Translations under genes and position numbers: made by a program
Shown: piece by piece, positions 2,166 to 20,667 of the stretch
Numbering within the stretch: position 1 is the first letter of the stretch
Layout: each line of letters begins with the position of its first letter
Notes under the pieces: model-generated
Seen by the model: the letters and a program-made list of their open reading frames with translations, nothing else
Databases searched by the model: none
What the model was told of the DNA's origin: nothing
Source: an uncultured Gemmatimonadota bacterium
GTDB lineage: Bacteria > Gemmatimonadota > Gemmatimonadetes > Palauibacterales > Palauibacteraceae
DNA: 40,220 nt
Direction: 5' to 3'
Assembly (NCBI GenBank): GCA_964392705.1
Contig: CAYMQZ010000005.1
Span: 1-40,220, forward strand

Positions 2166-2550
2166 CGGGCGCATAGCCTCCCGCGATGGCGGCCCTGGTG
2201 AACCAGCCGCGCACGCCGGACGTCGCGCTACGGCCGGGGGGCAGGGTGGACCACCCGCCCGGCGACCTCTACCGCTTCGCGGAGCTCACGTGCCAGCCGA
2301 TCCCCCCACGAGTGGCGCCGGCGATCCGATCCGGAGCGCGTCGTCGCCCACCGGCGGCCGCGCCGCGCCCGGGTGTCCGATCGCGAACAGTCGGTCCCGG
2401 ATTCGCACACGACCGGATCCCGCGGATCCATCGTGATTCTGGCGTAAGCACGGGCCGCACAATCACTTCGATTTTGTCGAGCGTCCGGTATGTCCCGTGC
2501 ACCGCGAGCCGGTCGCCGGGTGGGGGCGCTCTCAGACGGAAAGGACACCG

Positions 2551-5088: not shown

Positions 5089-7743
5089 CTACTGCGCCTT
5101 CAGCACCTGCGACGGCTCGGTGGAGACGGCCCGGCGAGCCGGGAGTCCGGCGGCCAGCGCGGCGACCGCCAGCAGGACGCACGCCGTACCGAGAAAGGCG
5201 CGCGGATCGGCCGGGGCCACGCCGAACAGGACGGCATCCAGCACGTCGGAGAAGAGGAGGGAGAGCCCCCACCCTGCCGCGATGCCTGCGGCCGTCAGCA
5301 GGAGCATCCGTCGCAGGACGCCCAGGACGATGTCTGGGCCCGATGCTCCCAGCGCCATCCGGATCCCGATCTCGGGCTCCCGTTCCGCGACCGTCTGCGA
5401 CAGCACCCCGTAGATTCCGAGCGCGGCGAGCAACAGGGCGGCGACGCCGAAGGCGGAGAGGATGCCGAGGGCGAAGCGGCGGTCGGAGACGGCGCCCGCG
5501 ACGGTCGACTCGAGTGACCAGAACTCGTGTCTCGGCATGCCGGGGTCGACCTCCTCGAGCAGCCCGGACACGGTGGCGACCACCTGCGAAGGCGGCAGAC
5601 GCGACCGCACGACGAGGTCCGTGCCGAGGACGTCGGGCATCTGCGCATACGGGAAGTAGACCTCGATGCCGGCGCCCGTCTCCGGCGACAGGTGCCGCAC
5701 ATCCCGCGTGACACCCACGACCTCCCACTCCCAGTCGCCAAAGAACGCGAGACGGCGCCCGAGGGCCTCCTCCTCATTCCCGAAGATCCGCCGCGCCCCG
5801 GTCTGGTTGAGGAGGACCACGGGCGTCGACCCCTCCCGGTCGGCCGGCGAGAAGTTGCGACCGGCCACCAGCGGGATCCGCATGGTCGGCAGGTAGCCCG
5901 GACCGACGACGTGGGGGAACACGCCCTCACCGGTGTCTTCCTGTCCCGGCCGGTCGACGACCCTGAACGGCCACTCTCGATTGCGGCCCAGCGGCAGGGC
6001 ATCGATGAGGCCGACGCTCTGGATGCCGGCGGCCGCCTCCACCCGCTCGGCGAGGCGGGCGTAGGACCCGCTTCGCTCCTGGTGGGATTCGAAGTCGGTA
6101 CTGCGGCCGAGCTGCCAGGCGATCGTGTTCGCGGGCTCGAACCCGAGATCCACGTCGAGGACGGCCCGGAAGCTCGCGAGCAGCAATCCTCCGACGACGA
6201 GCAACGCGCAGGCGAGCGCCACCTCCACCATCACGAGCCCCTCCCGTAGACGACGGGCACCGCGGCTCGCGCTGCTTCCGCGTGAGGCGGCCTGAAGCAC
6301 AACGGCCTCCCCGCCTTCGGCCACCTGGAGCGCCGGGATCGTCCCCACCGCGACTCCCGTGAGCACGGCCACGCCGGCCGCGACGAGGAGCGCGGAAGTG
6401 TCGAGCTCGACCGAGTCCATGAGGGGGATGTGGATCATGGCCGCGTTCCGCACGAGGCCCGTGGCGAGCCGGGCCAGGAGGCTCCCGAACGCCGCGCCGA
6501 CGAGCGAGATCCCCAGCGTCTCGAGCACGAGCTGCCGCATCAGCCGCGCGCGCGGCGCCCCGAGGGCCTTCCGGACCGCCATCTCGCGGGCGCGCGACGG
6601 CGACCGCGCCAGCAGGAGCCCGGAGACGTTCACGCACACGATGAGGAGGAGCATCCCCGCGGCGGCCGCGAGCAGGAGCAGGGAGCCGCGGAACGGCCCG
6701 GCGAGGTGGTCCTGGAGTGTCTCGAGCTCCGCTCCGAGGCCCCAGCGCTCCGGATCCTCCTCCCCGAGCGCCGCGATGAGCGCGGCCAGCTCGGTCTGCG
6801 CCGCCTCGGGCGTCACGCCGGGCCGCAGTCGCCCGATGAGGGCGAGAACGTTCCCCTGGAAGGCGTTGTCCCTCGAGACCACGAACGGCAGGAGGAAGTC
6901 CACCTCGACCCCCGGGGTGAAGACCGAAGAGAAGTCGAAGCTGGCCGGCAGCACCCCCACCACCGTGCGGGGGATGCCGTTCAAGGTGACGCCCCGTCCG
7001 ACGACGGTCCGATCGGAGGCGAAGCGATCGCGCCACAGCCGGTGCGAGAGGATCACCGCCCGGGGGCCGCCCCGCTGGCCCTCTTCCGCGGTGAAGCTCC
7101 GCCCATGGAGCGGTCGGACGCCGAGCACGTCGAGGAAGTCGTGCGCCACGCCGACGCCGACGAGGCTCTCGGGCTCGCCGGCGCCCGCCAGGGTGTAGGC
7201 GCGTTTCGCGAAGAACGCATCGTAGCCGGTGATCCCGCTGAACGACCGGGTCCGGGCCCGGAAGTCGATCAGGTTCACGGTCCGCTGGGTGACCGCGGAG
7301 AGCGAGCTGTCCCCCGCCGCCTCGCTGTTGGAGATCCACACGAGCTCGTGCCCATCCTCCAACGGGAGGGCGACCGCGAGGGGCTTCAGGACGCTGTAGA
7401 CCGTGGTCACGGCGCCCACGCCGAGACCGATCACCGCGCCCACGAAGAGCGCGAAGCCGGGGGAGCGTCGGAGCATGCGGGCCGCGTGGACGGCATCCTC
7501 CGCGAGGCTTCCCGGGCGGGGCACGGAGGCGCGCCGGAGCGAGCGGAGGAGCGCGTGGGCGAGACGGCCGGAGGCGAGGCCGACGGCTTCGCGCCAGTAC
7601 CATAGCCGCGCCGCCGTCCGCCCCCGCGACTCGAGGACGCGGCTGAAGTCCTCGTGCAGGTCGCCGAGGATCGCGGAAGCGGCCGGGTCGCCCCGAAAGG
7701 CGCGGGCGAGGAGGCGCGTCGCCAGGCGCGGCGGGTGCGTCAC
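5089..7743 (-). CDS. ADOP-family duplicated ABC permease with N-terminal permease-prefix extension, 884 aa
   Basis: The GTG start overlaps the PadR stop (GTGA). Prefix HPPRLATRLL..GDLHEDF..WYWRE; CVNVSGLLLAR..REMAVRKALGA; EIGIRMALGA; PARRA C-terminus. Confidence 0.92.
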   Translation of the reverse strand: MTHPPRLATRLLARAFRGDPAASAILGDLHEDFSRVLESRGRTAARLWYWREAVGLASGRLAHALLRSLRRASVPRPGSLAEDAVHAARMLRRSPGFALFVGAVIGLGVGAVTTVYSVLKPLAVALPLEDGHELVWISNSEAAGDSSLSAVTQRTVNLIDFRARTRSFSGITGYDAFFAKRAYTLAGAGEPESLVGVGVAHDFLDVLGVRPLHGRSFTAEEGQRGGPRAVILSHRLWRDRFASDRTVVGRGVTLNGIPRTVVGVLPASFDFSSVFTPGVEVDFLLPFVVSRDNAFQGNVLALIGRLRPGVTPEAAQTELAALIAALGEEDPERWGLGAELETLQDHLAGPFRGSLLLLAAAAGMLLLIVCVNVSGLLLARSPSRAREMAVRKALGAPRARLMRQLVLETLGISLVGAAFGSLLARLATGLVRNAAMIHIPLMDSVELDTSALLVAAGVAVLTGVAVGTIPALQVAEGGEAVVLQAASRGSSASRGARRLREGLVMVEVALACALLVVGGLLLASFRAVLDVDLGFEPANTIAWQLGRSTDFESHQERSGSYARLAERVEAAAGIQSVGLIDALPLGRNREWPFRVVDRPGQEDTGEGVFPHVVGPGYLPTMRIPLVAGRNFSPADREGSTPVVLLNQTGARRIFGNEEEALGRRLAFFGDWEWEVVGVTRDVRHLSPETGAGIEVYFPYAQMPDVLGTDLVVRSRLPPSQVVATVSGLLEEVDPGMPRHEFWSLESTVAGAVSDRRFALGILSAFGVAALLLAALGIYGVLSQTVAEREPEIGIRMALGASGPDIVLGVLRRMLLLTAAGIAAGWGLSLLFSDVLDAVLFGVAPADPRAFLGTACVLLAVAALAAGLPARRAVSTEPSQVLKAQ

Positions 7744-8066
7744 GCCTCCCCCAGTACCGGTTCCAGGCCGTCGAGGAACGTGACGAGGACGGCCCGGGTC
7801 TCGCGCACCGCTGCCAGCCCATCCTCGGTCACCAGGAGCCGCCTCATCGGGTGGCCGCCCCGCTCCGGGACCTGGCTGGGCTCCAGCTCCCACGCGAGGA
7901 ACCTCTTCTCGACGAGCCGGTCGATGGTTCGGTAGAGCGCGCCCCGGGTCACGCGTCGCCCGGCGTTCGCCTCCAGGTCCTCGCGCACGCGGTTGGCGTA
8001 CGGTGCCTCCGCCTGCCTCAGCACCGCGAGCAGCACCAGGAACTCGAACTCACCGAGTCTGGACAT
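7740..8066 (-). CDS. PadR-family transcriptional regulator
   Basis: LGEFEFLVLLAVL..GALYRTIDRLVEKRFL..ERGG..RR..VTEDG winged helix; translationally coupled to the ADOP permease. Confidence 0.92.
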   Translation of the reverse strand: MSRLGEFEFLVLLAVLRQAEAPYANRVREDLEANAGRRVTRGALYRTIDRLVEKRFLAWELEPSQVPERGGHPMRRLLVTEDGLAAVRETRAVLVTFLDGLEPVLGEA

Positions 8067-8099
8067 CAGCGGTCCCTTCGCGGTTCTGTCGCCGGGGCG

Positions 8100-9449
8100 T
8101 CACGGGGGCGCCGTTCCGCCGACCGACACGGCCGTCGTCCAGATCTCGAAGGCTCCGCCGCGCGCGTCCGGCCAGAGCACGTGGAAGCGTCCATCCGCTC
8201 CGGCGGCGAGGCCGAAGTAGTCGCCCCCTCTCGGCCATCGTCGGACCGGGAACTCACCCGCGCGAGAGGCGTCGGGACAGGAGAGCTCCGTCGCGACTCG
8301 AACGGCGGGGCCGAAGGTCAGCCCGCCATCCACCGACGCGGCGAAATAGGGAGCGTAGCATCGCCCGGAAGGATCGTCCCGCCCGTCCATCCAGGCGACG
8401 CCGACCACTCCCTGACCGTTCACGGCGACCTGGGGCTCGGACCGCGAACCGTCCTCCGATGCGGGTGGCTCTAGCGGCGTCGCGGCGGACCACACCTCGC
8501 CGTGATCGGTCGAGTACGCGAGCAGGATCGACCGTTGCTCGTCCCCCTCACAAAGCTTGTAGAGCCGGTCCTGGAAGGGGCCGCTCGACGTATCCGCCGC
8601 CAGGAAGGTCGGGCGGTACCAGCACTCCTCCGTAACGAGCAACGGAATCGAGAAGGAATTGCCCTGGTCGGAGGAGGTCATCACCCAGGTGCGGGTGACC
8701 TCGAGCGCGCCGGCACGAGATCGGAACCCCCCCTCGGGCACAGGGCGTTGGAAATCGTTGTAGGCGATCACGAGGGTCCCATCGGAGAGCACGGCCAACC
8801 CGTCCGACCCCTGATTCAGGTTGCTCGGAACGACACGGTTCATCGTTTCGACATGCCCCCTTCCGGGCCGGACGCGTCCGACGAAGGCCATGAACCGGAG
8901 CTTCCCGGCAGCATCGCGACGACCTTGATGCGAGAGCACGTAGATCGTGCCGTCGGGCGCGGCGAGGGACCGTGGACCGTCATGCCCTCCGCCGAGGCCC
9001 TGCGGAATGTCGCGCCAGGTCTCCCCGCCGTCGCGGGAGAAGTACGCCACGAGGTTGTGGTCGGCCGGGTCCGGTAGGCTGGAGTGGGTCCCGAGGGCGG
9101 TCAGCACGGCGGTTCCCTCGTTCGTGAGCGACACCCAGGGGTCGCCGCATCCCGCGCCCCCGAGGTCACGGCGCTCCCAGTTGCGTCCCCCATCGGACGA
9201 GTGGAACGTGGCGCAGCGTTCCTCGGCCTGTGCGGGTTCCCCGGCGAGGTGGACCCAGCCGGCGGCCAACAGGTGGTCCGGATCCGAAGGATGCGTGGCG
9301 AGATGAGGTTCGATCAGCACCCGTCCGTCGGCCTCACGGGCGACCAGAACGTCCTGCTCGACGTCGTACTCGAGCTCCTGGGCCGAGGCGCCATGAGCAC
9401 CCGCTGCGATGGCTGCCATCAACCCCGCTGTTTGCCAGGACATCGTCAT
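8100..9449 (-). CDS. Secreted BNR/Asp-box beta-propeller protein (sialidase-like fold)
   Basis: Signal peptide ending ASA-Q; five Asp boxes (SSDGGRNW, SRDGGETW, SSDQGNSF, STDHGEVW, SVDGGLTF); C-terminal GDYFGLA. The start codon is uncertain (9449, 9443 or an upstream GTG). Confidence 0.85.
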   Translation of the reverse strand: MTMSWQTAGLMAAIAAGAHGASAQELEYDVEQDVLVAREADGRVLIEPHLATHPSDPDHLLAAGWVHLAGEPAQAEERCATFHSSDGGRNWERRDLGGAGCGDPWVSLTNEGTAVLTALGTHSSLPDPADHNLVAYFSRDGGETWRDIPQGLGGGHDGPRSLAAPDGTIYVLSHQGRRDAAGKLRFMAFVGRVRPGRGHVETMNRVVPSNLNQGSDGLAVLSDGTLVIAYNDFQRPVPEGGFRSRAGALEVTRTWVMTSSDQGNSFSIPLLVTEECWYRPTFLAADTSSGPFQDRLYKLCEGDEQRSILLAYSTDHGEVWSAATPLEPPASEDGSRSEPQVAVNGQGVVGVAWMDGRDDPSGRCYAPYFAASVDGGLTFGPAVRVATELSCPDASRAGEFPVRRWPRGGDYFGLAAGADGRFHVLWPDARGGAFEIWTTAVSVGGTAPP

Positions 9450-9546: not shown

Positions 9547-11238
9547 TCACCCGCCCTCGAAGCGTCGGCTCCAGCCCGTGCGCTCGCTCAGGACGACGGG
9601 CTTCACGTCGCCCAGCCGCCGCCCCCGGGACTCCTGTCGCAGGTAGGTCCGGTGCGCGCCGCGGCTCACCCGGAAGACGGCCGGAGGGGCCAGTTGTCCG
9701 AGGCGCCGGCAGTGAAGGTAGTGCGGGTTCCGGGAGAGCTCGGCGTCCAGCCGCGCCGCCAGGGCGGAGTCGAGCGGAAGCTCATCTGCCGGGGCGACAT
9801 CGAGCGGAAGCTCGTCCCGGGGCGCCACGGGCAACGTCTCGACCAGGAGCTCGTCCGGAAAGGCGGGCGGGTCTTCCAGGTAGAGCGTGTAGCGGGGGAC
9901 GGCGTCACCGTCGTCCGGCGCCAGCATGGCGAAGGTCGGCGTCCGATCGCCGAACAGCCGCTCCAGGGCCTCCGCCACGAATCCGGCGGCCAGCTTTTCT
10001 CCGCGGAGGTCCGAGATGCCGCCCTCCCGGTCGACGAAGCGGAGGGAGGGCGTCCGGGCGTGGAACCCTTCCACGCGCACGCGGTCCCGCAGCCGATACC
10101 GGTACAGCCCGGCGCCGGTGGTCAGGACCACGCCGTAGGTCTCCCCGGAGCGCAGCTCGGTCACGGTCCGCGGCCGGCCGGTCTCGTCCAGGAACTCGAA
10201 GAAGTGGGAGCGCACGGCCACGAGCCGCGCCCGGCCGATCGGGATGGACACGACGCCCTCGGTCGCCAGCAGGCCCTTCGGCTGGACGGCCACGCCCGGG
10301 AGCCACCGCTCGAGCTCCTCGGCCGCTCCGGCCGAGGGGCCGTCGGCCCAGCAGCTCACGAGCTCCAGGCGCGGCCAGATGCGGTCCCTGGTCTCCGGTC
10401 CGGCGGACTCCAGCTCGCGCGCCCTGGAGCGATCGGCCCGACGCCAGCCCCGCAACTCTCCGCGAAGCGCGATGGGCAGCTCGCCCGGCGGCCGGACGAA
10501 CCCGTCGGCGACGTCGCGGAGCAGGTCGTTCCACCGCTCCCGGATCGTTTCCAGCAGCAGGACGAGGAAGGAGGGGTGCCAGACCGAGACGAGCCGGAGC
10601 TCCCGGGCGCGGAGCAGTCCGAGCGCGCTCAGGTAGCGGAAGCTCCGGGGATCCGGCGCGAGCCGGACCGCCTCGGGCACGGCCAGCGCGCCGCGCACCA
10701 GGCGGCGGCCGAGGCCGCCGACGTAGGCGCTGTCCTCCTCGAAGCCGATCGGGAGGGCCGCGCTCCCCGCCCCGTCGTCCGGGATGGCCGGCGAGACCGA
10801 CCAGTAGGCGGGCCCGCCCCGCAGCTCCGGGCGCCGCGCGAAGAGGTCGGCGACCCACGGCGCCACGGCGCGGCGGTACTCCGCCCCGAACCCGTCCGTC
10901 CAGGGGATGAGCTTCCGAGCGGCCGTGGATCCGGCGCTCGGGAGCAATCGTCGTACCGGCTCGGCGGTCAGGACGCCCGGCTCGCCGTGGCGGATCCGCG
11001 CGATGAGCGGCGCGAGATCGTCGTAGTCGACGATGGGCACGCGACGCCGGTACTCCTCGACGCCACGGATCGTGGCGAAGCCGTGCGCGCGGCCGTAGAC
11101 GGTCCCGGCGTTGCGGCGCAGATAGTCGCGGAGCAGGCGCCGCTGGACGGCGCCCGGATCCCGCAGCGCCCGCTCGAACAGGCGGGCCCGCGGGAGGCAG
11201 GAGAAGTGCCAGAGCGCGTTGGCCGCCCGCGGGTTCAT
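9547..11238 (-). CDS. GH3 family acyl-adenylate-forming enzyme (acyl acid-amido synthetase fold), 563 aa
   Basis: RRVPIVDYDDL; motif I PSAGSTAARKLIP; motif II LLATEG; FFEF; motif III TTGAGLYRYRLRD; FVDR..SDLRGEKL. The ATG overlaps the upstream stop (ATGA). Confidence 0.88.
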   Translation of the reverse strand: MNPRAANALWHFSCLPRARLFERALRDPGAVQRRLLRDYLRRNAGTVYGRAHGFATIRGVEEYRRRVPIVDYDDLAPLIARIRHGEPGVLTAEPVRRLLPSAGSTAARKLIPWTDGFGAEYRRAVAPWVADLFARRPELRGGPAYWSVSPAIPDDGAGSAALPIGFEEDSAYVGGLGRRLVRGALAVPEAVRLAPDPRSFRYLSALGLLRARELRLVSVWHPSFLVLLLETIRERWNDLLRDVADGFVRPPGELPIALRGELRGWRRADRSRARELESAGPETRDRIWPRLELVSCWADGPSAGAAEELERWLPGVAVQPKGLLATEGVVSIPIGRARLVAVRSHFFEFLDETGRPRTVTELRSGETYGVVLTTGAGLYRYRLRDRVRVEGFHARTPSLRFVDREGGISDLRGEKLAAGFVAEALERLFGDRTPTFAMLAPDDGDAVPRYTLYLEDPPAFPDELLVETLPVAPRDELPLDVAPADELPLDSALAARLDAELSRNPHYLHCRRLGQLAPPAVFRVSRGAHRTYLRQESRGRRLGDVKPVVLSERTGWSRRFEGG

Positions 11239-11969
11239 CCGAGGCGTCTCGCCCCCTCCGGCCGGCGCGACGCTCCGTACAGCATCCTGAGACCCGCGCG
11301 GGTGAGGTTGGCGTCGCCCAACTCGGCCAGGCAGACGAGCTCGTCGCCCTCCGCGTGGCCGGGGTTGAGGCGGGCGAACAGCGCCACGTGGGGGTCGTCC
11401 AGCCTGCCGGCGGGCAGCTCGCGGAGGCCGGGCCGCAGGCGCTGGGGGCGGGCGAGGCGCACGATGCCGGTCGTCGGATCGTAGCGGTCGCCGAAGCGCC
11501 GCCGCGCCAGGCGATCGCGCCTCGCGCGCAGCTCGTCGGACGCGGATGAAGCGTGACGCGGATAGAAGCGCCGGCAGAACACGGGGAGAAAGCGGTAGGT
11601 GCGGAAGCCGGAGGTGATCAACAGCCACCACAACCGGCCGGCGCCCTGCCGCGCGTGGAGCCGCCGGACGCCGCGGATCCAGGTCCGGGCCAGGGCCGGC
11701 GAGCCCCGGGACGCCGGCTCGACGATCGTGTCGCCCGAATAGACGACCGTGTGCCGCTGGCCGCTGAGACGGTCCTCGTACAGGAGGAGGGTCGAGAACC
11801 CGACGAGGCGGCGCGATCCGTCCTCGAGCAGGAGCACCCAGTTCTTCTCGGCCAGATCGGCCCGGAACCCGTCGCGGTCCACCCCGAGGAAGTGGCGACG
11901 CAGGAGCCGATACATCGCGGCGGCGCAGGGGGCGTCCACCGCTTGGCGCGGGATCAGGCGGCCATTCAC
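11235..11969 (-). CDS. GNAT-fold hypothetical protein, 244 aa
   Basis: 3' part of ORF 11235-13358. The GTG start overlaps the upstream stop. LVGFST and VVYSGDTIVEPASRGS resemble GNAT beta3/beta4 motif A; also LLITSGFRTYRFL and NPGHAEGDELVC. Confidence 0.75.
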   Translation of the reverse strand: MNGRLIPRQAVDAPCAAAMYRLLRRHFLGVDRDGFRADLAEKNWVLLLEDGSRRLVGFSTLLLYEDRLSGQRHTVVYSGDTIVEPASRGSPALARTWIRGVRRLHARQGAGRLWWLLITSGFRTYRFLPVFCRRFYPRHASSASDELRARRDRLARRRFGDRYDPTTGIVRLARPQRLRPGLRELPAGRLDDPHVALFARLNPGHAEGDELVCLAELGDANLTRAGLRMLYGASRRPEGARRLG

Positions 11970-13294
11970 AGCCTGGCCCCCTCCACCCGGACGTTCCGAG
12001 CGTCGAGCCCCGCCGAGGCCGGGTCGAAATCCCGGTCGTGCACCAGGTAGAGCACGCTCGTGTACGGGCGCCCGCCGAAGCGGCGCCGCAGGGCCGCGAG
12101 CCAGGCGTGCGAGGCGGGCAGGGCCACCGAAAGGTACTCCAGACCCAGACGCGCCGCCCGCCGGCAGGCGGTCTCGACCAGCCGGACCGCCACGGCCTCG
12201 TCGTCGGCGGCCAGGTGGGACAGATGCGCCATCCGGAGGGCCGTGCCGGGGCGGGGGAGGGTCGGCCTGCCCGCCGTCTGCAGCGCCGCGTTCAGCCACG
12301 GACGGAGTCGGCGGAGCCACCCCGCGTAGCCGCTCACCACGCACTGCCGGAGGGGCCGCTGATCCCAGATGGCGCCGCAGCCGACGATGCGGTCCGCCTC
12401 GCGGGCGACGAGGGGATGCCACTGGCCCAGGCTTCCCCCCGCGAGCTCGCGCAGCCGCCCGACGTCCCACCGGGGCGCCAGCCGGTGGCCGCGACTCCGC
12501 CCCTCGAGGTACGCGGCCACGGCGGCGATCTCCTCCGGATCCGGCCGCGCCACCGTGCGCGCGAGCCGCGCCGCCGTCCGTCGCCCCCGCCCCGGCCACC
12601 CCGATCCAAGGCGGGCGACGGACCGCGAGAGCCGTCCCGCCCGCGCCGGGAGCACCAGGGTCACGAGCCCCGCGATCGGGGTGTAGACGGGCAGCCCCGG
12701 AAGTCCCCGCTCCAGGAGCCGCCGGGCGGGGGTGTTGTCGGCCACGATGGCGGTCAGGTCGAACGGAAGCTCGTCCTCCGCCCGGAGCCGCCGGGCGAGG
12801 CCGTAGCCTTCGACCAGGGCACGCCGCCGGAGGCGGTGGCCGGGCGCGGCGCGGAGCTGTCCGAGGTAGCCCAGGAGCGCCGGCCTCCCGTCGAACCACA
12901 CCTCCTGGACCGACCGGCTCCCCATGGCGAGGATCTCGTCCGTCCCCGGGTGGCGGACCACGATCGTCGCCGACCGCTCGCCCCCGAGGCGGGCGGCGGC
13001 CAAGTAGCTCCGCTCGCGCGGGAACGAAAGCCGGATCGAGCCCCCCAGCGGTGCCTCGCGCAGCAGGCGGCGGAGCGCGGGGTCGTCCTCCGGACCGGCG
13101 AGCTCGCAGCGCCAGGCCCGCCCGTCCCGTGGCCGAGCCCCGTCGAGGGGACGGCTTCCCTCCGGCCCCGGAGCCGTGTCGCCACGGCGCTGGTTCGTTC
13201 CCACGCTCTTTCCGGACCGATCGGACGGCGCCGCCGCGCCGCCGGCCTCCCCGCGCCGCGCTGCGGCCACGCCATCCCTCGCCGCCCGGCTCAC
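11966..13294 (-). CDS. Probable tandem GNAT-fold acyltransferase-like protein, ~442 aa
   Basis: The GTG overlaps the rSAM stop. AGPEDDPALRRLLRE..IRLSFPRE; GYLGQLRAAPGHR (motif A-like); TAIVADNTPARRLL; second half IVGCGAIWDQR. The N-terminal ~60 aa are low complexity, so the start is uncertain. Confidence 0.72.
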   Translation of the reverse strand: MSRAARDGVAAARRGEAGGAAAPSDRSGKSVGTNQRRGDTAPGPEGSRPLDGARPRDGRAWRCELAGPEDDPALRRLLREAPLGGSIRLSFPRERSYLAAARLGGERSATIVVRHPGTDEILAMGSRSVQEVWFDGRPALLGYLGQLRAAPGHRLRRRALVEGYGLARRLRAEDELPFDLTAIVADNTPARRLLERGLPGLPVYTPIAGLVTLVLPARAGRLSRSVARLGSGWPGRGRRTAARLARTVARPDPEEIAAVAAYLEGRSRGHRLAPRWDVGRLRELAGGSLGQWHPLVAREADRIVGCGAIWDQRPLRQCVVSGYAGWLRRLRPWLNAALQTAGRPTLPRPGTALRMAHLSHLAADDEAVAVRLVETACRRAARLGLEYLSVALPASHAWLAALRRRFGGRPYTSVLYLVHDRDFDPASAGLDARNVRVEGARL

Positions 13295-14664
13295 GCCTCC
13301 AGCAGCCGTCCCCGCCACGCCTCGTCTCCCAGGGGCAGGCCGTTCCGGCCCTCGACATCGCGCTGGTGCATGGCGTTGATCACGAAAAAGTTCGCCAGCA
13401 TCCACGGGTCGGCACGGTTCACCCTCTGACGGCCCCGGGCCACGATGCTCGGCCACGAGTAGAAGCGGCGCCGGGCTTCGACGCACCGCCGGGCCAGCTC
13501 CTCGGGGGCCATCGTGGCCGGCCGGAACGGTACCATGTTGTAGCGGTAGCGCGGGTCCAGCCACCACGCTTCGTACAGCAGGCGGCCCTCCCGCTCCATC
13601 CGCTCGTACAGCGGCGTTCCCGGGAACGGCGTGATGTGGTTGAAGGCCGCGATGAACAGCCCCTCCTCGCGGGCGAAGCGGATGGCGGTGTCGAAGGCTT
13701 CGGGCGTGTCGCTGTCGTAGCCGAAGATGAAGGTGCCGTAGATCCGGATGCCGTGCCGCCGGAAGTTCGCCATCGCCTGGCGGGGGCCGCCGGCCATCAG
13801 GTTGAACGCTTTGTTCATGGCCCGAAGGCTGGTCGGGTTCAGGCTCTCGAAGCCCACGAGCACGCCCTGGCAGCCGCTCCGCCGCATCAGGTCGAGCGCC
13901 TCCTCGTCGTACGCGACGTTGATGCTCGCCTGGCTCACCCAGCGGACCCTCCGCCCGATCAGCGCCCGCATCAGCTCCTTGGCGGCGGCGAGGTCCGACA
14001 TGATGTTGTCGTCCACGAAGAAGATCATCCGGCCCGGCCTGCGCACCTCCTCGATCTCGGCCAGCACCCGCTCGACCGCGCGGTGGTTCTGCGTGGCGCC
14101 GAAGAACGACTGGATCGCGCAGAAGTCGCAGCGGAAGCGGCAGCCGCGGGCGAACTCGATGAGCCCGATCGGCAGGTATCGGCGTCCGCAGAAGATGGAG
14201 CGGTCCGGCGTCACGATCGCCTCGGGCCGCTCCGTCGCCCGGTAGACCTCCCGCGGCCGGCCGTGCCGATAGTCATCGAGCAGCTCCGGGAAGGCGTCTT
14301 CCGCCTCGCCCACCACGATGGACTCGCAGTAGCGGCTCACCTCCTCCGGGCAGAGGGTGGCGTGGAACCCGCCCATCGCGACCGGAACTCCCCGCGCGCG
14401 ATACTCGCTCGCGATCTGGTACGCCCTCCGGGCCGTGTACGTCTCGACGCTGATCGCCACCAGGTCCGTCGGCTCGTCGTACGGGATCGGCTCGAGCCGG
14501 TCGTCGTAGAACCGCTTCTCGATCCCGGTGGGGGTCAACGCCGCGACGGCCGCCGCCGGGAGCGGCGCCATCCGCCAGGTCCGGATGTAGCGTTTCATCC
14601 CGACGCGCCGCCCGACGCACGGGTGCACGATCGTGAGCCGGAACGGGCGGGTACGGCCGCTCAT
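13291..14664 (-). CDS. Cobalamin-binding radical SAM protein 2, 457 aa
   Basis: B12-domain features DLVAIS..AYQIA..GGFHAT..VGEAE; CxxxCxxC in RGCRFRCDFC; FFVDDN; VGFES; FIFGYDSD; TPFPGTPLY. ATGA coupling. Confidence 0.93.
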   Translation of the reverse strand: MSGRTRPFRLTIVHPCVGRRVGMKRYIRTWRMAPLPAAAVAALTPTGIEKRFYDDRLEPIPYDEPTDLVAISVETYTARRAYQIASEYRARGVPVAMGGFHATLCPEEVSRYCESIVVGEAEDAFPELLDDYRHGRPREVYRATERPEAIVTPDRSIFCGRRYLPIGLIEFARGCRFRCDFCAIQSFFGATQNHRAVERVLAEIEEVRRPGRMIFFVDDNIMSDLAAAKELMRALIGRRVRWVSQASINVAYDEEALDLMRRSGCQGVLVGFESLNPTSLRAMNKAFNLMAGGPRQAMANFRRHGIRIYGTFIFGYDSDTPEAFDTAIRFAREEGLFIAAFNHITPFPGTPLYERMEREGRLLYEAWWLDPRYRYNMVPFRPATMAPEELARRCVEARRRFYSWPSIVARGRQRVNRADPWMLANFFVINAMHQRDVEGRNGLPLGDEAWRGRLLEA

Positions 14665-16148
14665 ACGGCGCCGACGGCCCCCGCGCGCGACCCCGCGCTC
14701 CCGGCGCGCGACTCCGCGGTCCCATCGCGCGACCCCGCGCTCCCGTCGCTCGACCGGCCGGCCCTCGCCTCGCGGCCCGTCGACCACGCGTCGCGGCCCG
14801 TCGACCACGCGTCGCAGGTGTAGAACCGGTGAAGGTCCCACGCGTAGTGCCGGTAGGCCAGGTTCGTCGAGAGGGCCACGTGCCACGGCGCCGCGGTCTG
14901 TCGCAGCCGCCGCCAGGTGGCTCGCCAGCCGTAGGCCAGCTTCCAGGCGCGCTCCGTGCCCCGCTGGAGCTCGTCGACGCCCATGTTCCGGGGCCGGAAG
15001 ACCACGTGCTGCCCGTCGTAGAGTTGCCAGTCGCGGGTGAGGATGCGCCCCTCGGCCTCCAGCCGGCGGTGGAGCTCGGTGCCCGGGAACGGCGTGAGGA
15101 TGGCGAAGCGCGGCAGGTCCACGCCGATCTCCACCGCGAGCCGGGCGGTGCTCTCGAAGGCGTCCGGCCCGTCCGCGTCCATCCCGAACACGAAGCAGCC
15201 CTGTAGCGCGATGCCGCGCTCGTGCAGTCGGCGAACCAGCTCGGGATACCGCTCGGGATCGTTGAACCCCTTCCGCGAGCTCCGGAGGTTCTTCCGCGAG
15301 ATCGACTCGAGGCCCATCAGGAGCCCGCGGCAGCCACTCTCGGCCGCCAGGTCGAGCAACGGCCGGTCGTCGGCCAGCAGGGTCGTGGCCAGCCCGTACC
15401 ATTGGATCCGGAGCGGGACCAACGCCTCGAACAGATCGCGGGCGTACGCGCGGTCCGCGATGAGGTTCAGGTCGATGAAGATGGCGCGCCGCGCGCCCTG
15501 GGCGCGGATGTCGGCCACCACGTCCTCGACCGGCTTCTGGTGCGGCCTGCGCCCCCACGCCGAGGGCACGACGCAGAAGTCGCAGGCGTGGACGCAGCCG
15601 CGGGTCGCCTCGAAGACGTGCGACGTCAGGTAGCGCCGTCGGGGCAGGACCGAGCGGTCGGGCAGCGGGAGGCCGGAGAGGTCGAGGTTGGCCTCCTGCT
15701 CGTAACGGGGGCGCAGCCGTCCGTCGCGGACGTCCCGCAGGAGAGCGGGCCAGCTCGTCTCGGCGTACCCCACCACGATGCTGTCCGCGTGAGGGCTCGC
15801 GTCCTCCGGCACGAGGGTCACGTGCGGCCCGCCCAGGACGACCGGAATCCCGCGCGCCCGGAAGCTTCGGGCCAGCTCGTACGCCCGGAACGCCGTGCCG
15901 GTGATCACCGTCATGCCCACCAGGTCGGCGTCCAGCTCGACGTCGACTTCCTGGATGCCCTCGTCGACGCAGGTCAGCTCGACCTCGACGTCTTCGGGGA
16001 CGAGGGAGGCCAGCGTGGGGAGCGTGAGCGGCATGTACCGGAGCGACCGCCGGAAGATGCCTCCCCGGTGGCGGTAGAGCGGGCCCTTCGGGGAGATGAG
16101 CAGCACCCGGAGGGGACGCCGATCAGCGGGCCGGTCCGAATCCCTCAT
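14661..16148 (-). CDS. Cobalamin-binding radical SAM protein 1, 495 aa
   Basis: RBS ggagagg; PLTLPTLASL..DLVGMT..GGPHVT..VGYAE; RGCVHACDFC; FIDLN; MGLES; FVFGMD; TPFPGTEL. Confidence 0.93.
   Translation of the reverse strand: MRDSDRPADRRPLRVLLISPKGPLYRHRGGIFRRSLRYMPLTLPTLASLVPEDVEVELTCVDEGIQEVDVELDADLVGMTVITGTAFRAYELARSFRARGIPVVLGGPHVTLVPEDASPHADSIVVGYAETSWPALLRDVRDGRLRPRYEQEANLDLSGLPLPDRSVLPRRRYLTSHVFEATRGCVHACDFCVVPSAWGRRPHQKPVEDVVADIRAQGARRAIFIDLNLIADRAYARDLFEALVPLRIQWYGLATTLLADDRPLLDLAAESGCRGLLMGLESISRKNLRSSRKGFNDPERYPELVRRLHERGIALQGCFVFGMDADGPDAFESTARLAVEIGVDLPRFAILTPFPGTELHRRLEAEGRILTRDWQLYDGQHVVFRPRNMGVDELQRGTERAWKLAYGWRATWRRLRQTAAPWHVALSTNLAYRHYAWDLHRFYTCDAWSTGRDAWSTGREARAGRSSDGSAGSRDGTAESRAGSAGSRAGAVGAV
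14683..14815. repeat. 21-bp tandem repeats encoding the low-complexity C-tail of rSAM 1
   Basis: tcgcggcccgtcgaccacgcg x2 (DAWSTGR x2) and ~3 copies of (g/t)cgcgcgaccccgcgctcccg-like units (GSAGSRD/GTAESRA/GSAGSRA). Confidence 0.8.
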
Positions 16149-16225
16149 CGTGCCTCTCCCGTGCGTGCCTCGTTCGGCCGGCGGGCGCCGATGACGCTCC
16201 CGCCGGCCCACGCCGTAACTGCGCC

Positions 16226-16675
16226 TCAGGCCGGCTCCTCGGCCGGCTCGAGCCCCCGCCGGGAGCGCGAGGCCAGCGCGAGCAGCACGAGGAGCGCGAT
16301 GGCCAGGAGCCCGAAGACCGCCGCGTTCACCACGACCCGCCCCGGCGGAATCGCGAAGGTGGCTTCGATCAGCTCCAACTGGAGCAGCCGCTGCAGGACG
16401 CGGAGCAGGAGGACGACGGCGAAGCCGACCACGACGGCCCGGTAGCGGATCGGATCCAGAGCGGCGGCCACCCCCGCCACCCCGAGCCCGACCATGAACG
16501 CGCCGAGCATCTGGGCCAGGTACGTCAGGGGGACGCTCCACTCCAGATCGGCCCCGTAGAGCCGCGCCACCTGTTCCTGGAAGCCCGGGGAGACGAAGCC
16601 CCCGAGCCCGAGCACGAGGTGGGAGAGGGCGACGAACCACAGAAGCACCTTGAGGATGCGCAGGGTATCGTTCAT
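16226..16675 (-). CDS. Small four-TM membrane protein, 149 aa, first gene of the rSAM-GH3 cluster
   Basis: RBS gaggag before MNDTLRILK; four hydrophobic segments; no recognised enzyme motif. Confidence 0.8.
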   Translation of the reverse strand: MNDTLRILKVLLWFVALSHLVLGLGGFVSPGFQEQVARLYGADLEWSVPLTYLAQMLGAFMVGLGVAGVAAALDPIRYRAVVVGFAVVLLLRVLQRLLQLELIEATFAIPPGRVVVNAAVFGLLAIALLVLLALASRSRRGLEPAEEPA

Positions 16676-16808: not shown

Positions 16809-18869
16809 TCAGCGCCCTTCGCGCACGGGGACGAACAGCGCCGCGTCGGCATAGACCCGGCCGTCGCCCGCGGCTCGCACCGCGAGGAAGGCCTCCTCGC
16901 TCGGATCGAACCGGAACTCGCCCAACCGCACCCACGAGACGATGCCGTGCTGGAGCCCGCCGTGGATCTCGTCCGGCTCGCGCATGTCGACCGTGAGGGT
17001 GTCGACGCCGTCGGCGTGGCGGACGACGACGGGCACGGCGGTCGAGAGCGCTTCCGACCTCGGCCAGTAGAGGTGGACGTCGTAGGCCCCTTCCGCCGGG
17101 ATGTCCGGCACGAAGCGCACCTCGCCCGGCCCCCCGCCGTCGTGGCGGAGGGCGGTCATCCCGAACTTCCCCTCCGGCGACTCGCGGCTCCACGAGCCCG
17201 AGATCTGCACGCGATCCGCGTCCCCGTCGTCCACCAGCGCCTCGGGCGTGCTGCCGTCGGCCAGCGGGTTCTCCTTCAGCTCGCGCTGGAGGGCCGCCAC
17301 GTCGACGGCCTGGACGAGGGTGTCGGCGTCGATCGCCATGGAGGCGGCGACGGCGGCTACCTGTCCCAGCACCATGTAGACCGGCTCCATGCGGATCGAG
17401 CCGAACGCGATGTGGGAGGCCGATAGCGCCACGGGCACGAGCAGGTTCGTCACCTCCTCCCGCTTCGGGGTGAGCGAGCGATAGGAGATGGGGTAGGGCT
17501 CGACCACGACCGCCCCACCCAGGTCGTCGTCGGGCCAGCCGCCGACCTCGACGTTGCCCTCGTTCTTCACCATGCCGTCCACTACCACCCGCTGGACGTT
17601 GTGCGAGTCCATCGTGTAGGCGGCCAGGCCGACCCCGTCTTCCACGACCTCCCGTCCCACGGCGTGGTGCTCCGTCATCACGTGCTCGCCCACGAGCCGG
17701 CGGGCCTCGCGCACGTAGAGCTGGTGCGGCCAGCCGCCCGTGTCCAGGAACTCGTCAGCGCAGTAGCCCCAGCTCCCCGTCTGCTCCCGGAGGCGCGCCG
17801 GGACCCGCGGATCGTTCGCGAGGAAGAAGATGAGCCCTTTCTGGTACGCCTCGTGCTCCCGGCGGATCTCGGCCCGCCGCTCGTGGCCGGCCTCCGGGTA
17901 GTCCCAGTTCTTCCCGATGTAGTCGGTCGAGAACCCGCCGCGGTTGTTCCAGTCCGTCTTCCCGTTGGGCATGCGGCTGATGATGAAGAGCGAGTCCAGC
18001 GACGGCGTTTCCTCGGCCGCGATCCTCCGGAGCAGCAGCTCGTAGCGATCGGGGTCGTAGGCCTCCGGTCGGGCGATCGGGACGCGATCCTCGCCCTGGC
18101 AGAGGCTCATGCGGTAGTTGTACGCCTGTACCCCGCGGTCGCCGGTCCCGTTCGGCGCGACGCGCCCGCTGGTCATCTCGGGAAGCAGGCCGCTGGAGGG
18201 GTCCCCCGGCACGACGTAGGGATCCACCCCGTCGGGGAACTGGTGCCGCCCCCGCAGCTGCACGCCGTTCAGGGTCTCGGCGTAGATGTCGTTGCCCTCG
18301 CGGCCCACGATGTACGAGGCGCCGGCCATGGCCATCAGGTCGCCCTCGTAGCTCGCGTCGATGAACTGGCGGGCGGCCACGACCAGAGGGCCCGCTCCCG
18401 TACCGGGGCCGGCGTATTCCAGCTCGACGTCGCGGATGCGGGGGCCGTCCTTCCGAACCTCCTTCAGCCGCCGAGAGAACAGGATCTCGACATCGGCCTC
18501 GTCGACGTACGATTCGAACGTCCGCTCGGCGACGTGTGGCTCGAACTGCCACGCCTCGAACCAGCCGTACTGGCGTCCGACGCGGCGGTAGAAGTCGAGC
18601 GCCAGCCCGGTCACGGCGAACTTGTTCCCGATGTCGGTCTGGCCCAGGCCGCCCGAGCTCATGCCGCCCAGGTGCCGGCCCGGCTCGACCAGCAGCACGC
18701 TCCTCCCGTACGTCTTCGCGGTGTAGGCGGCGATGACGCCGGCCGACGTGCCGCCGTAGACGAGCACGTCCACCTCGAGATCCGATTGCCCGGAAAGGGG
18801 TGCTCCGGGAAGGGCGAGGAGGACGGCGGTCGCGAGGAGCGCGGTCGAGCGGAGGGGCATCGGCTTCAT
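16809..18869 (-). CDS. Secreted FAD-dependent oxidoreductase (FAD_oxidored type) with golvesin/xanthan-lyase-like C-terminal domain, 686 aa
   Basis: Signal peptide; DVLVYGGTSAG; HLGGMSSGGLG; FIDASYEGDL; LYVREARRL; AYTMDSH; ISYRSLTPK..SASHIAFGSIRMEP; C-domain EGAYDVHLYWP..WVRLGEFRF..ADA. Confidence 0.9.
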   Translation of the reverse strand: MKPMPLRSTALLATAVLLALPGAPLSGQSDLEVDVLVYGGTSAGVIAAYTAKTYGRSVLLVEPGRHLGGMSSGGLGQTDIGNKFAVTGLALDFYRRVGRQYGWFEAWQFEPHVAERTFESYVDEADVEILFSRRLKEVRKDGPRIRDVELEYAGPGTGAGPLVVAARQFIDASYEGDLMAMAGASYIVGREGNDIYAETLNGVQLRGRHQFPDGVDPYVVPGDPSSGLLPEMTSGRVAPNGTGDRGVQAYNYRMSLCQGEDRVPIARPEAYDPDRYELLLRRIAAEETPSLDSLFIISRMPNGKTDWNNRGGFSTDYIGKNWDYPEAGHERRAEIRREHEAYQKGLIFFLANDPRVPARLREQTGSWGYCADEFLDTGGWPHQLYVREARRLVGEHVMTEHHAVGREVVEDGVGLAAYTMDSHNVQRVVVDGMVKNEGNVEVGGWPDDDLGGAVVVEPYPISYRSLTPKREEVTNLLVPVALSASHIAFGSIRMEPVYMVLGQVAAVAASMAIDADTLVQAVDVAALQRELKENPLADGSTPEALVDDGDADRVQISGSWSRESPEGKFGMTALRHDGGGPGEVRFVPDIPAEGAYDVHLYWPRSEALSTAVPVVVRHADGVDTLTVDMREPDEIHGGLQHGIVSWVRLGEFRFDPSEEAFLAVRAAGDGRVYADAALFVPVREGR
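16903..17480. repeat. 578-bp direct repeat, copy 2 (inside the intact oxidoreductase gene)
   Basis: Identical to 1458-2035. Confidence 0.95.
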
Positions 18870-19250
18870 GAGGCGACTTCTCCGGTTCAGGGCATCAGGA
18901 CGGCCAGGACCACTCCGGCCTCGTCCCCATGGGCAAGGTAAGAGCCCCGGCACAGCACGAGGAGTGGAGGCCGCCCCGCCCCGGGCCTCGCGAGCGGCCC
19001 TCGAGCTCTTCGGCGTCCACGGTCCCTACCCCCCGGCCGGGCGCAGGTCCTCCGGAGTGCACGACCGACCCCCCCCATTCTGCAAACTTTTCCCTCTCCG
19101 GTCACGCGTGCCACGGCGGCCGACCACACGACCTCGGTATCCCGTAACGATTTCCGCCCGACGGAGAGGGTAAGGCCCGGGACTTGAATCAAGGCGTGGC
19201 TCGATACCGAGGGCCGCTGCCGTCGACCATCCTCTCTCCAGGAGTCGCCG

Positions 19251-20660
19251 TTGCCGGATCGGCACACCCCCATCCGCGTCGCGTCCGGGGGTCGCGCAGA
19301 ACGGGCGGATGTCTCGCCAGGGCGACCGAAGATCGCGCTGTACTCCCACGACGCCATGGGGATTGGGCACCTGCGTCGGAACCTTCTCCTGGCCGAGTGC
19401 TTCGTCACGGCGGCGCCGGGAACCACGGTTCTCCTCATCTCGGGCACGCGCGAGTCGGGAGCCTTCCCGGTCGTGCCGGGAGTCGACTGCCTGACGCTCC
19501 CGGCGCTGGAGAAGCGCGAGGATGGGACGTACGGTGCCAGGAACCTCCTGGTCGGGGCGAGGGCGCTTCACGAGTTGCGGAGGCGCAGCCTCCAGGCCGC
19601 TCTGGGGACGTTCCGCCCGAACGTGCTGATCGTGGACAAGCTCCCCCGCGGGGTGCTCGGCGAGCTCGATGAGACCCTCGCCGAGCTCCGGGCCGTAGGC
19701 AGCACGCGCACCGTGCTCGGGCTCCGGGACGTGCTTGACGCCCCCGGCGCCATCCGCGCCGAGTGGTCCCGGACGGCCAACGAGGCGGTGATCGCGCGAT
19801 ACTACGACGCGGTCTGGGTCTACGGGGATCCGAAGGTCTACGATCCGGTTCGGGAGTACGGCTTCGGTCGGAGCGTCACGTCGAAGCTGGCGTTCACGGG
19901 CTACCTCGATCCGCGTTTCCGGACGTCCGCGTGGCCGACGACCGCGGACGGCCTTCCGGGCTCGGCGAACCGGCGTCTCGTCCTTTGCCAGGTGGGGGGC
20001 GGTCAGGACGGCGACCGCCTGGCCGAGGCCTTCGCCCGCGCCGAATACCCTCCCGAGACGTACGGGGTGATCCTGACCGGCCCTTTCATGCCGGAGGCGG
20101 CGCGGCGGCGTCTGGAACACCTGGCGGCCGCGCGACGGGACCTCGGGGTGGTGGGCTTCACGAGCCGGCCGGAGGGGCTGCTGCGGTCGGCGGACCGGGT
20201 CGTCGCCATGGGCGGCTACAATACGGTCTGCGAAGCGCTGTCGCTGCGGAAGTCCCTGCTCGTGGTTCCCCGGGTTCGTCCACGGTGCGAGCAGCTCATC
20301 CGCGCGGAACGGTTCGCCGAGCTCGGCCTGCTGGAAACCCTCCACCCGGATCGACTGAGCGCCGAGGCCCTGTCCGAGTGGCTCCGACGCGACCTCCCCC
20401 GCCCGAGCGAGGCGCGGGATCGCGTGGATTTCGAGGGTCTCCAGCGCCTGCCGCGGCTCCTGAGGGAGTTGTTGGCCGGGGCGGCCGTCCGAGGCATCCC
20501 GCGCTCCCTCGAGAAGACGGGGGGAGGGACCGGACCGGCGGGGGCCGGGGAGGGCTCGCCCGCGGGGCGGGAGCGCGGATCGCTGACGGAGCCGGGCGAG
20601 AGGGGACCGACCGGTCTCGTTTCCGAGACGGCGAGGATGGGGGCCGACGGTGGGGGTTGA
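19251..20660 (+). CDS. GT-B glycosyltransferase (COG4671-like, GT28-type C-terminal domain) 1
   Basis: ALYSHDAMGIGHLRR; LIVDKLPRG; VLGLRDVLD; YYDAVWVYGDP; VGGGQDG; VAMGGYNTVCE; VVPR..EQLIRA. The TTG start follows aggag; an alternative start is ~19309. Confidence 0.88.
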   Translation: MPDRHTPIRVASGGRAERADVSPGRPKIALYSHDAMGIGHLRRNLLLAECFVTAAPGTTVLLISGTRESGAFPVVPGVDCLTLPALEKREDGTYGARNLLVGARALHELRRRSLQAALGTFRPNVLIVDKLPRGVLGELDETLAELRAVGSTRTVLGLRDVLDAPGAIRAEWSRTANEAVIARYYDAVWVYGDPKVYDPVREYGFGRSVTSKLAFTGYLDPRFRTSAWPTTADGLPGSANRRLVLCQVGGGQDGDRLAEAFARAEYPPETYGVILTGPFMPEAARRRLEHLAAARRDLGVVGFTSRPEGLLRSADRVVAMGGYNTVCEALSLRKSLLVVPRVRPRCEQLIRAERFAELGLLETLHPDRLSAEALSEWLRRDLPRPSEARDRVDFEGLQRLPRLLRELLAGAAVRGIPRSLEKTGGGTGPAGAGEGSPAGRERGSLTEPGERGPTGLVSETARMGADGGG

Positions 20661-20667
20661 GGCGGGG

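Follow-up and report, generated by a model that had tools for sequence, protein, structure and literature searches.

The window considered here is a stretch of 40,220 nucleotides from an uncultured Gemmatimonadota bacterium (contig CAYMQZ010000005.1 of assembly GCA_964392705.1), and the subject of this analysis is a set of six co-oriented genes on its minus strand, at 9547-16675. An earlier note, made from the sequence letters, had taken them for a candidate undescribed pathway that combines a small membrane protein, two B12-binding radical S-adenosylmethionine (rSAM) enzymes, two GNAT-fold proteins and a GH3 amido synthetase, and that gene content is as it described, by Pfam for GH3 and both rSAMs and by structure models for the GNAT folds. 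In transcriptional order the genes are those below, with Y442 and X244 serving as labels for the 442-amino acid (aa) and the 244-aa protein.

16226-16675, minus strand: small membrane protein, 149 aa (open reading frame and its translation)
14661-16148, minus strand: rSAM1, a B12-binding (class B) radical SAM protein, 495 aa (Pfam)
13291-14664, minus strand: rSAM2, a B12-binding (class B) radical SAM protein, 457 aa (Pfam)
11966-13294, minus strand: Y442, a predicted tandem-GNAT acyltransferase with the N-myristoyltransferase fold, 442 aa (AlphaFold2 model, Foldseek, VIA-align)
11235-11969, minus strand: X244, a predicted single-domain GNAT-fold acyltransferase, 244 aa (AlphaFold2 model, Foldseek, VIA-align)
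9547-11238, minus strand: GH3-family acyl-acid amido synthetase, 563 aa (Pfam GH3 N, M and C domains)

No Pfam domain of a non-ribosomal peptide synthetase, polyketide synthase or carrier protein is present in the six genes, again in keeping with what had been proposed. The last five are chained by four stop/start overlaps that read, on the coding strand, ATGA at 14661-14664, GTGA at 13291-13294, GTGA at 11966-11969 and ATGA at 11235-11238, and the suggestion of their translational coupling thus stands. Upstream of the rSAM1 ATG the sequence is GGGAGAGG. Since homologues of Y442 align only from about residue 55-63 and the N-terminus of its structure model is of low confidence, the true start of Y442 could be an in-frame GTG 24 bases into the gene, which is the start position of the closest homologue; one overlap would then be lost.

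A sigma-70-like site that directly follows the GH3 stop and precedes a gene for a BNR-repeat protein (8100-9449) lies on the minus strand at 9539-9512 (TTGACT, a 16-nt spacer and TATACT, with 10 of 12 matches); it is the single such site within 7.8 kb, against a mean of 0.2 in shuffled sequence. Because the next gene has this promoter-like signal of its own, the operon most likely ends at 9547, and the best explanation of 9547-16675 as a whole is that it is one operon. Third-position G+C is 0.91-0.95 across all six genes and alike in their neighbours, the G+C content of the window being ~72%. The source metagenome-assembled genome (MAG) amounts to 3.46 Mb in 476 contigs and is 86.69% complete, and soil-metagenome DNA runs are the sole sequencing runs in which the stretch was found. 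Its proteins, by their best matches, indicate Longimicrobiales within the Gemmatimonadota.

The genes that flank the operon encode, besides the BNR-repeat protein, an FAD oxidoreductase with Golvesin_C, MacB-type permeases and GT28-like glycosyltransferases, and are not common to related loci. Several form paralogous pairs, namely FAD_oxidored with Golvesin_C at 1364-2227 and 16809-18953, MacB-type (MacB_PCD with FtsX) permeases at 2437-4965 and 5089-7893, and GT28-like glycosyltransferases at 19251-20660 and 20587-21960; none of these pairs has a counterpart in the related cassette loci.

A cassette shared across phyla

Of 599 candidate stretches in a scan of species genomes, 542 encode a relative of X244. 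Counts of loci from here on refer to the 80 best related loci, in which genes were called by our own extraction of open reading frames (ORFs) and taxa are as given in the record titles; single loci carry L numbers. The order rSAM1-rSAM2-Y442-X244-GH3, on one strand, recurs in 36 of the 80 and in five phyla (18 loci in Acidobacteriota, 11 in Verrucomicrobiota, 4 in the Phycisphaerae of the Planctomycetota, 2 in Gemmatimonadota and 1 in Myxococcota). With the same five genes in the same order in so many loci, the arrangement is evidently far from chance, and the test which the earlier note had set for its proposal, conservation of gene order across phyla, has come out in its favor. The closeness of packing is also shared, the Y442 match ending at the X244 start base in 17 loci as it does in the window. 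Partial non-cyanobacterial loci number 13, of which 10 are cut by a contig end and three (L052, L056 and L061) have room and yet one gene absent; X244 without rSAM or Y442 genes accounts for 28 cyanobacterial and 3 unclassified loci. Within the phylum of the window the distribution is patchy, with Y442 in 13 of 301 genomes and 11 of 128 genera, and in 5 of 41 close relatives.

Several copies look damaged. L052, which is without rSAM2, has a Y442 match that begins at residue 191, and L023 and L074 have split matches in Y442, GH3 or rSAM1. Frameshifts, pseudogenes or long-read indel errors could each be the cause.

The small membrane protein does not share in this conservation. Its four hydrophobic stretches (~4-30, 52-76, 73-103 and 108-139 on the Kyte-Doolittle scale) come with no Pfam or NCBIfam match, and its ESM Atlas neighbors are hypotheticals, with one weak match to BphX (0.93). 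By iterated profile, relatives are present in 2 of the 80 loci, in L022 beside extra rSAM paralogues and in L023 just after GH3, and none was found on the Citrobacter plasmid described below. Its candidacy as a core component was rejected on these counts. The earlier note had counted it in the set; in refinement of that, the protein is, as far as its occurrence tells, an accessory outside the conserved core.

The order is not sacrosanct. A mobilisable IncF plasmid of Citrobacter portucalensis has a 12-kb cluster, at 51417-63512 of NZ_CP134684.1, in which all five families are present and reordered, X244-GH3-rSAM1-rSAM2-Y442. Next in line are two additional rSAM2-like genes, one for a PAP2 phosphatase and one hypothetical; the opposite strand has another rSAM1-like gene and one for a fatty acid desaturase. 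That the families stay together when their order changes argues for a functional linkage and not a merely inherited one. The cluster had no match in E. coli complete genomes, and among other plasmids none at near-identity beyond the one Citrobacter record.

What travels with the cassette has a recurrent flavor. Genes for a fatty acid desaturase (PF00487) are in 24 of the 49 non-cyanobacterial loci, in varying position and orientation, with L023 (where the order is GH3, membrane protein, desaturase) and the Citrobacter plasmid also having one. PAP2 lipid phosphatase genes are in L033 and on the same plasmid. The extras of L009, L010 and L033 are an AurF-like di-iron protein, KshA-type Rieske oxygenases (these in L009 and L010), a hexapeptide-repeat membrane protein, PAP2 and a SnoaL-like domain. 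In L010, from an Acidobacteriota MAG, a 779-aa ORF (6538-8877) has a KshA-type Rieske oxygenase fused to the rSAM2 orthologue, and so joins an oxygen-dependent and an oxygen-sensitive type of enzyme in one chain; it is a single instance and may be an assembly error. Five Acidobacteriota loci have an AAA ATPase and a possible PspA/IM30-like protein directly upstream of rSAM1 (L020 2957-5491, L021 3464-4228), and this neighbor, if its reading from N-terminal sequence is right, hints at a link to membrane stress.

There are also loci which do without the rSAM genes altogether. In cyanobacteria (L014-L084, e.g. L081 9956-18962; cultured strains include Calothrix NIES-4105 and Leptolyngbya PCC 7375) X244 is joined in 14 of 28 loci by a distant GH3 of 26-31% identity, and the accessories are three Rieske proteins, an AurF-like di-iron protein (23 loci), a hexapeptide-repeat membrane protein (22), a 2Fe-2S ferredoxin (19), FA_hydroxylase (17) and a 312-aa protein. 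This X244-Rieske-GH3 cluster appears to be uncharacterised. Burkholderia arboris has X244, a Y442-like protein (hhalign probability 99.7% over 360 columns), one uncharacterised gene, a desaturase, GH3 and a Rieske protein. Two proteins considered as Y442 relatives, the one of 312 aa from cyanobacteria and one of 354 aa from Burkholderia, were discarded, their hhalign probabilities being no higher than 0.1%. In Acinetobacter baumannii (L093, 6150-15583 of NZ_CP064203.1, a record of 3.97 Mb though labelled a plasmid) an operon of overlapping genes encodes HlyD, an EmrB-type major facilitator superfamily (MFS) transporter, X244, GH3, an outer-membrane factor (OEP), a Y442-like protein and a SurE-like phosphatase, a tripartite efflux pump thus being interleaved with the trio; a literature search found no functional study of this GH3/efflux operon. 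Because X244, the Y442-like protein and GH3 occur together without rSAM genes in Burkholderia and Acinetobacter, this presumably amide-forming trio is the apparent core. The rSAM pair would be one of several alternative tailoring sets that functionalise C-H bonds, and the only one of them that needs no oxygen.

The radical and acyl-transferring enzymes

By their features both rSAMs belong to class B of the radical SAM enzymes: the B12-binding domain is N-terminal, there is a Radical_SAM core, and CxxxCxxC is present. They are predicted to use cobalamin. For rSAM1 the Pfam scores are 43.1 bits for the B12-binding domain (PF02310, cut-off 32.1) and 43.6 bits for Radical_SAM (PF04055, cut-off 29.5), and for rSAM2 they are 37.5 and 56.7 bits against the same cut-offs. 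Since the motif is present in both (CVHACDFC at residue 185 of rSAM1, CRFRCDFC at residue 175 of rSAM2), both look catalytically intact. Each has in addition a weak match to DUF4070 that stays under the cut-off (for rSAM1 19.3 bits against 22). The two are 40% identical to each other, and their conservation across phyla is unusually high, with orthologues at 61-77% identity for rSAM1 and 60-81% for the pair. At E≤1e-100 rSAM2 has at least 7175 database clusters, among them cultured Halomonas (H. campaniensis and H. tibetensis) at 75% identity.

To name the reaction from relatives is another matter. In a sequence search of solved structures the nearest to rSAM2 is AprD4, at an E value of 1.5e-11, which is unusable for assigning a function. 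The top NCBIfam match of both is HpnJ, with 93.2 bits for rSAM2 and 71.1 bits for rSAM1 against a cut-off of 577.6, and the other pairs of score and cut-off are similarly far apart (BchE 82/481, HpnR 53/650, ladderane-type 77/360). Assignment of the two as equivalogs of HpnJ, BchE, PhpK, HpnR, QCMT, the ladderane-type enzyme or AprD4 was therefore rejected, all scores being far under the curated NCBIfam cut-offs.

Y442 has no Pfam or NCBIfam match, Pfam NMT and NMT_C (N-myristoyltransferase, NMT) included, and its profile finds nothing among solved structures that could be used to assign a function (best E 0.062; an NMT2 chain at E 2.1). The fold tells more. The AlphaFold2 model, built on an alignment of homologues, has a mean predicted local distance difference test score (pLDDT) of 84.8, with residues 1-56 below 50 and disordered and an ordered core at ~58-442. 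Its Foldseek matches, among those listed in ranks 1-50 (some omitted), are all NMT, at E 2.2e-12, and VIA-align superposes it on NMT with Z 23.3 over 307 residues at a root-mean-square deviation of 3.5, as a pseudo-dimer of two GNAT folds. The claim of two GNAT-fold proteins thus holds for both as modelled, with the amendment that one of them, Y442, is a tandem GNAT with the NMT fold. The structural alignment runs to the last residue of each partner (442 against 492, 496 or 451 in NMT). NMT uses its C-terminal carboxylate as the base in catalysis. The Y442 family has a C-terminus of invariant length, which among 150 representatives reads E-x-A-x-L, with Leu last in 145, Glu at -5 in 141 and Ala at -3 in 144. 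By analogy the C-terminal carboxylate of Y442 may be its catalytic base too, and this parallel is a strong lead and not a demonstration. The family is large: with its profile, 4219 representatives are reached at E≤1e-3, and still 1935 at E≤1e-30.

X244 has likewise no Pfam or NCBIfam match (PF13527 is matched in a few homologues), and its nearest ESM Atlas clusters are all 'hypothetical protein'; relatives make up at least 2706 clusters at 90% clustering. Against solved structures its profile has a best E of 0.92, unusable for assigning a function. The AlphaFold2 model, again built on a homologue alignment, has a pLDDT of 92.7 and a GNAT fold, with AAC(2')-Ia as top Foldseek match (probability 1.00, E 7e-7) and VIA-align Z scores of 10-12 to NatD, Gcn5 and AAC(2'), the maximum being 11.9 with 152 residues aligned. 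For LasI the values are 10.8 and 164 residues, for FeeM 10.0 and 158. What sets X244 apart is a ~75-residue insertion, a C-terminal extension and conserved motifs of its own, e.g. GDELVCL and SGFRTYRFLP, in which the invariant S-G-F-R-T-Y-R stretch comes after strand 4 and may correspond to the acyl-CoA pyrophosphate-binding loop (Q/R-x-x-G-x-G/A) of GNATs.

The N, M and C domains of GH3 score 160.8 (PF03321), 60.8 (PF23571) and 27.4 bits (PF23572), all above the cut-off of 23.6. The nucleotide-binding motifs, as they are defined for adenylate-forming enzymes, lie at 101 (S-G-S...K, in the window form SAGST), 325 (A-T-E), 379 (Y-R-Y-R-L-x-D) and 413 (G-E-K-L). Because they are conserved across 55 aligned orthologues (the G of S-G-S...K in 100% and its K in 98%, A-T-E, R-Y...D and G-E-K-L each in 100%), the enzyme looks active. 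The only characterised bacterial GH3 is OlsH of Singulisphaera acidiphila (PMC12493201), which in the OlsH/OlsI ornithine-lipid pathway spends ATP on linking a fatty acid to an amino acid by an amide bond, yielding N-acyl-ornithine (lyso-ornithine lipid) as the first step to a membrane lipid. That the window enzyme is OlsH itself was rejected, its score with the OlsH model (NCBIfam NF052613) being 55.1 bits against a cut-off of 620, over residues 17-138 only. Nor does Pfam find, in any of the six proteins of the operon, an alpha/beta-hydrolase that might have been an O-acyltransferase of the OlsI type.

What might be made

The partners of the cassette (desaturase, hydroxylase, PAP2, an NMT-type enzyme, a pump) together with the precedent of OlsH indicate a fatty-acyl amide. 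The reading favored here, to which we would give slightly less than an even chance, is of a widespread uncharacterised pathway to an N-acylated amine or amino-acid lipid (a lipoamino acid or aminolipid) which then undergoes oxygen-independent radical tailoring. The carboxylic acid that GH3 would adenylate and join to an amine, as OlsH does, is most likely either a fatty acid or an N-acyl amino acid; Y442, with its buried C-terminal carboxylate as base, would acylate a free primary amine with a long chain taken from acyl-CoA; and X244 would attach one acyl or acetyl group more. As many as three acyl or amide transfers would thus precede two B12-rSAM modifications, in which rSAM1 and rSAM2 would act on unactivated carbons by C-methylation or, less likely, by oxidation or ring formation of the BchE or Grs type. 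The membrane protein and, elsewhere, the desaturase, PAP2 and oxygenase genes would be lineage-specific accessories. We infer all of this, from the acid and amine substrates and the order of steps to the product and the choice of methylation over oxidation or cyclisation. The product class that the earlier note had put forward, an N-acyl-amino-acid, aminolipid or signal molecule, is likewise inferential and is the better supported now by the linked desaturase, PAP2 and efflux pump.

Several facts weigh against such a lipid. The cassette has no acyl-CoA ligase, acyl carrier protein or amino-acid-supplying gene, and no match to a cassette-type desaturase came from the genome of the window itself, where one protein query was used on an assembly 86.7% complete and absence is not shown. 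NMT modifies proteins, and the best folds for X244 are protein and aminoglycoside acetyltransferases, from which LasI and FeeM are not separable by Z-score. Peptide and aminoglycoside enzymes (QCMT-type MJ_0865, ApyD, AprD4) are among the NCBIfam and PDB matches of the rSAMs, as are lipid enzymes (HpnJ and the 'ladderane' rSAM), all far under cut-off. The Acinetobacter pump would suit a secreted soluble metabolite as well as a lipid.

Is the amide free, or put on a lipid already in the envelope? In the latter case GH3 and the GNAT-fold pair would add amino-acyl or acyl groups at an amine or carboxylate of a phospholipid head group, lipid A or a hopanoid-type amine, the rSAMs would modify chains, and PAP2 would remove phosphate. 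An outer membrane is present in every cassette-bearing lineage, all of which we take to be diderm. The desaturase genes of those 24 loci, the linked PAP2 of L033 and the Citrobacter plasmid, and the KshA-type oxygenases of L009 and L010, with their hydrophobic substrates, are consistent with such tailoring, and rSAM identity of the height seen across phyla is as expected for a universal invariant substrate. PAP2 is in few loci only, however, no lipid A or hopanoid genes were seen beside the cassette in the loci examined, the plasmid copy must act on whatever its host offers, and the tripartite pump of Acinetobacter suggests a free, exportable product, so that tailoring of an existing lipid seems unlikely. 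The same pump, with the trio inside its HlyD/EmrB-type MFS/OEP operon, would suit a secreted water-soluble or amphiphilic small molecule, be it a signal, an amide resembling an antibiotic, or a polyamine or amino sugar that has been acylated, with the rSAMs as C-methylases as in antibiotic pathways. Aminoglycoside 2'-N-acetyltransferases as the top Foldseek matches of X244, AprD4 of apramycin biosynthesis as the nearest solved relative of rSAM2, and the patchiness of Y442 coupled with a mobilisable plasmid, typical of secondary metabolism, all lean that way. Such a molecule is made somewhat more doubtful still by the NMT-like fold of Y442, which points to a long-chain acyl-CoA donor, by the recurrence of desaturase, FA_hydroxylase and PAP2 beside the cassette, and by the lack of conserved sugar-, polyamine- or amino-acid-forming genes there.

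A role in modifying a ribosomal peptide or a protein is the least probable of those considered. Y442 would in that case N-acylate a peptide amine, the rSAMs would C-methylate residues in the manner of PoyC or the MCR glutamine methylase, with GH3 as the ligase of an amine and a carboxylate. NMT is after all an N-terminal acyltransferase of proteins, tandem GNATs acylate Lys in lanthipeptides (PMC13060382), and the NCBIfam matches of the rSAMs include the MCR glutamine C-methyltransferase and rSAMs of ribosomally synthesized and post-translationally modified peptides (RiPPs), at 44-69 bits. The RiPP models, however, all score far under cut-off, no protease, leader-recognition (RRE) or lanthipeptide-type genes were seen, and the recurring neighbors are lipid-type enzymes. 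Nor did a search of the 1.5 kb around the cassette in 35 loci (the window left out) give any conserved small ORF, the best cluster being in 5 of the 35 and all in one lineage, though short fast-evolving or distant precursors could escape such a search. This weakens the peptide or protein alternative and is in keeping with the earlier assertion that a precursor peptide is lacking.

To return to the favored N-acylated lipid, a bolder form of it is rather more doubtful. This envisages a new envelope lipid or lipid signal for which the first prokaryotic NMT-type family, with its more than 4000 diverse representatives and a C-terminal carboxylate as base, acts with GH3 and the single GNAT to give a multiply N-acylated amine, the rSAM pair then providing C-H functionalisation without oxygen, for which Rieske, di-iron and desaturase oxygenases would be the equivalents elsewhere. 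If this is true the rSAM step could be methyl branching, ring closure or cross-linking, and we would have an anaerobic/aerobic replacement of enzymes of the BchE/AcsF type, acting on an undescribed lipid.

Stress resistance, membrane behavior and host immune signaling are all influenced by the aminolipids and lipoamino acids of bacteria, whose biosynthesis has been worked out for only a few types. The cassette and its trio without rSAM genes have a very wide distribution, which takes in Acidobacteriota, Verrucomicrobiota, Planctomycetota, Gemmatimonadota and Myxococcota of soils, and a function has been assigned to none of the members; beyond the full cassette there are the cyanobacterial X244-GH3 pairs, the Halomonas orthologue of rSAM2 and the related loci in Burkholderia, Acinetobacter and an enterobacterial plasmid. 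Once solved, the pathway would tell us what reactions two large GNAT families, both orphans, catalyse, and likewise an orphan branch of the B12-radical SAM enzymes that is highly conserved, and it could reveal a new lipid class of relevance to lipid biomarkers and envelope biology. Cultured carriers and the 12-kb plasmid version make it directly testable.

Comparison with known systems

The enzymes come from known superfamilies; what is uncharacterised is the pathway itself, along with the NMT-like family of bacteria and the rSAM branch. Literature searches on the themes of GH3/B12 radical SAM/GNAT, bacterial NMT and aminolipids, subscription-only papers being outside them, found no description of the gene combination, and as all NCBIfam equivalogs are far below cut-off too, the earlier view that no characterised pathway matches is sustained.

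With the eukaryotic NMTs Y442 has in common the tandem GNAT fold over ~307 residues and the same end point, and the near-invariant terminal Leu of its family would fit a carboxylate base like that of NMT. It differs in having no detectable sequence similarity to them, and in being bacterial and translationally coupled to small-molecule enzymes. X244 shares its fold with the synthases of N-acyl amino acids and N-acyl homoserine lactones (FeeM, LasI, TofI) and with AAC(2'), yet none of these has a significant sequence match to it, the insertion and the motifs are its own, and the Z-scores do not separate lipid from acetyl transfer.

The lipid-modifying class B rSAMs (HpnJ, HpnP/HpnR, GrsA/B, Gmm, BchE) have the N-terminal B12 domain, the rSAM core and the weak DUF4070 match in common with the rSAMs of the window, and there is a likeness to GrsA/GrsB in that the cassette rSAMs come as paralogous pairs or sets, of up to five on the Citrobacter plasmid. 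As equivalogs they differ, each model scoring the window enzymes far below its cut-off. A 2026 review of lipid-modifying radical SAM enzymes (PMC13459092) lists Tes, Mss, Gms, GrsA/B, Gmm, Cds, HpnH/J/P/R, Jaw5 and ladderane; no amide-lipid pathway is in its section list, and 'acyltransferase', 'N-acyl', 'aminolipid' and 'amido' are absent from its text.

The closest precedent is OlsH/OlsI. There too a bacterial GH3 is the amide former, and the GH3 of the window has all three GH3 domains and the conserved nucleotide motifs. The main text of PMC12493201 is without 'radical', 'GNAT' and 'acetyltransferase', and where that pathway has an OlsI-type hydrolase the operon of the window has two GNAT-fold enzymes and two B12-rSAMs in its place. 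Because OlsH has been characterised, a role for GH3 in lipid synthesis is already known; it is the combination of enzymes that is new.

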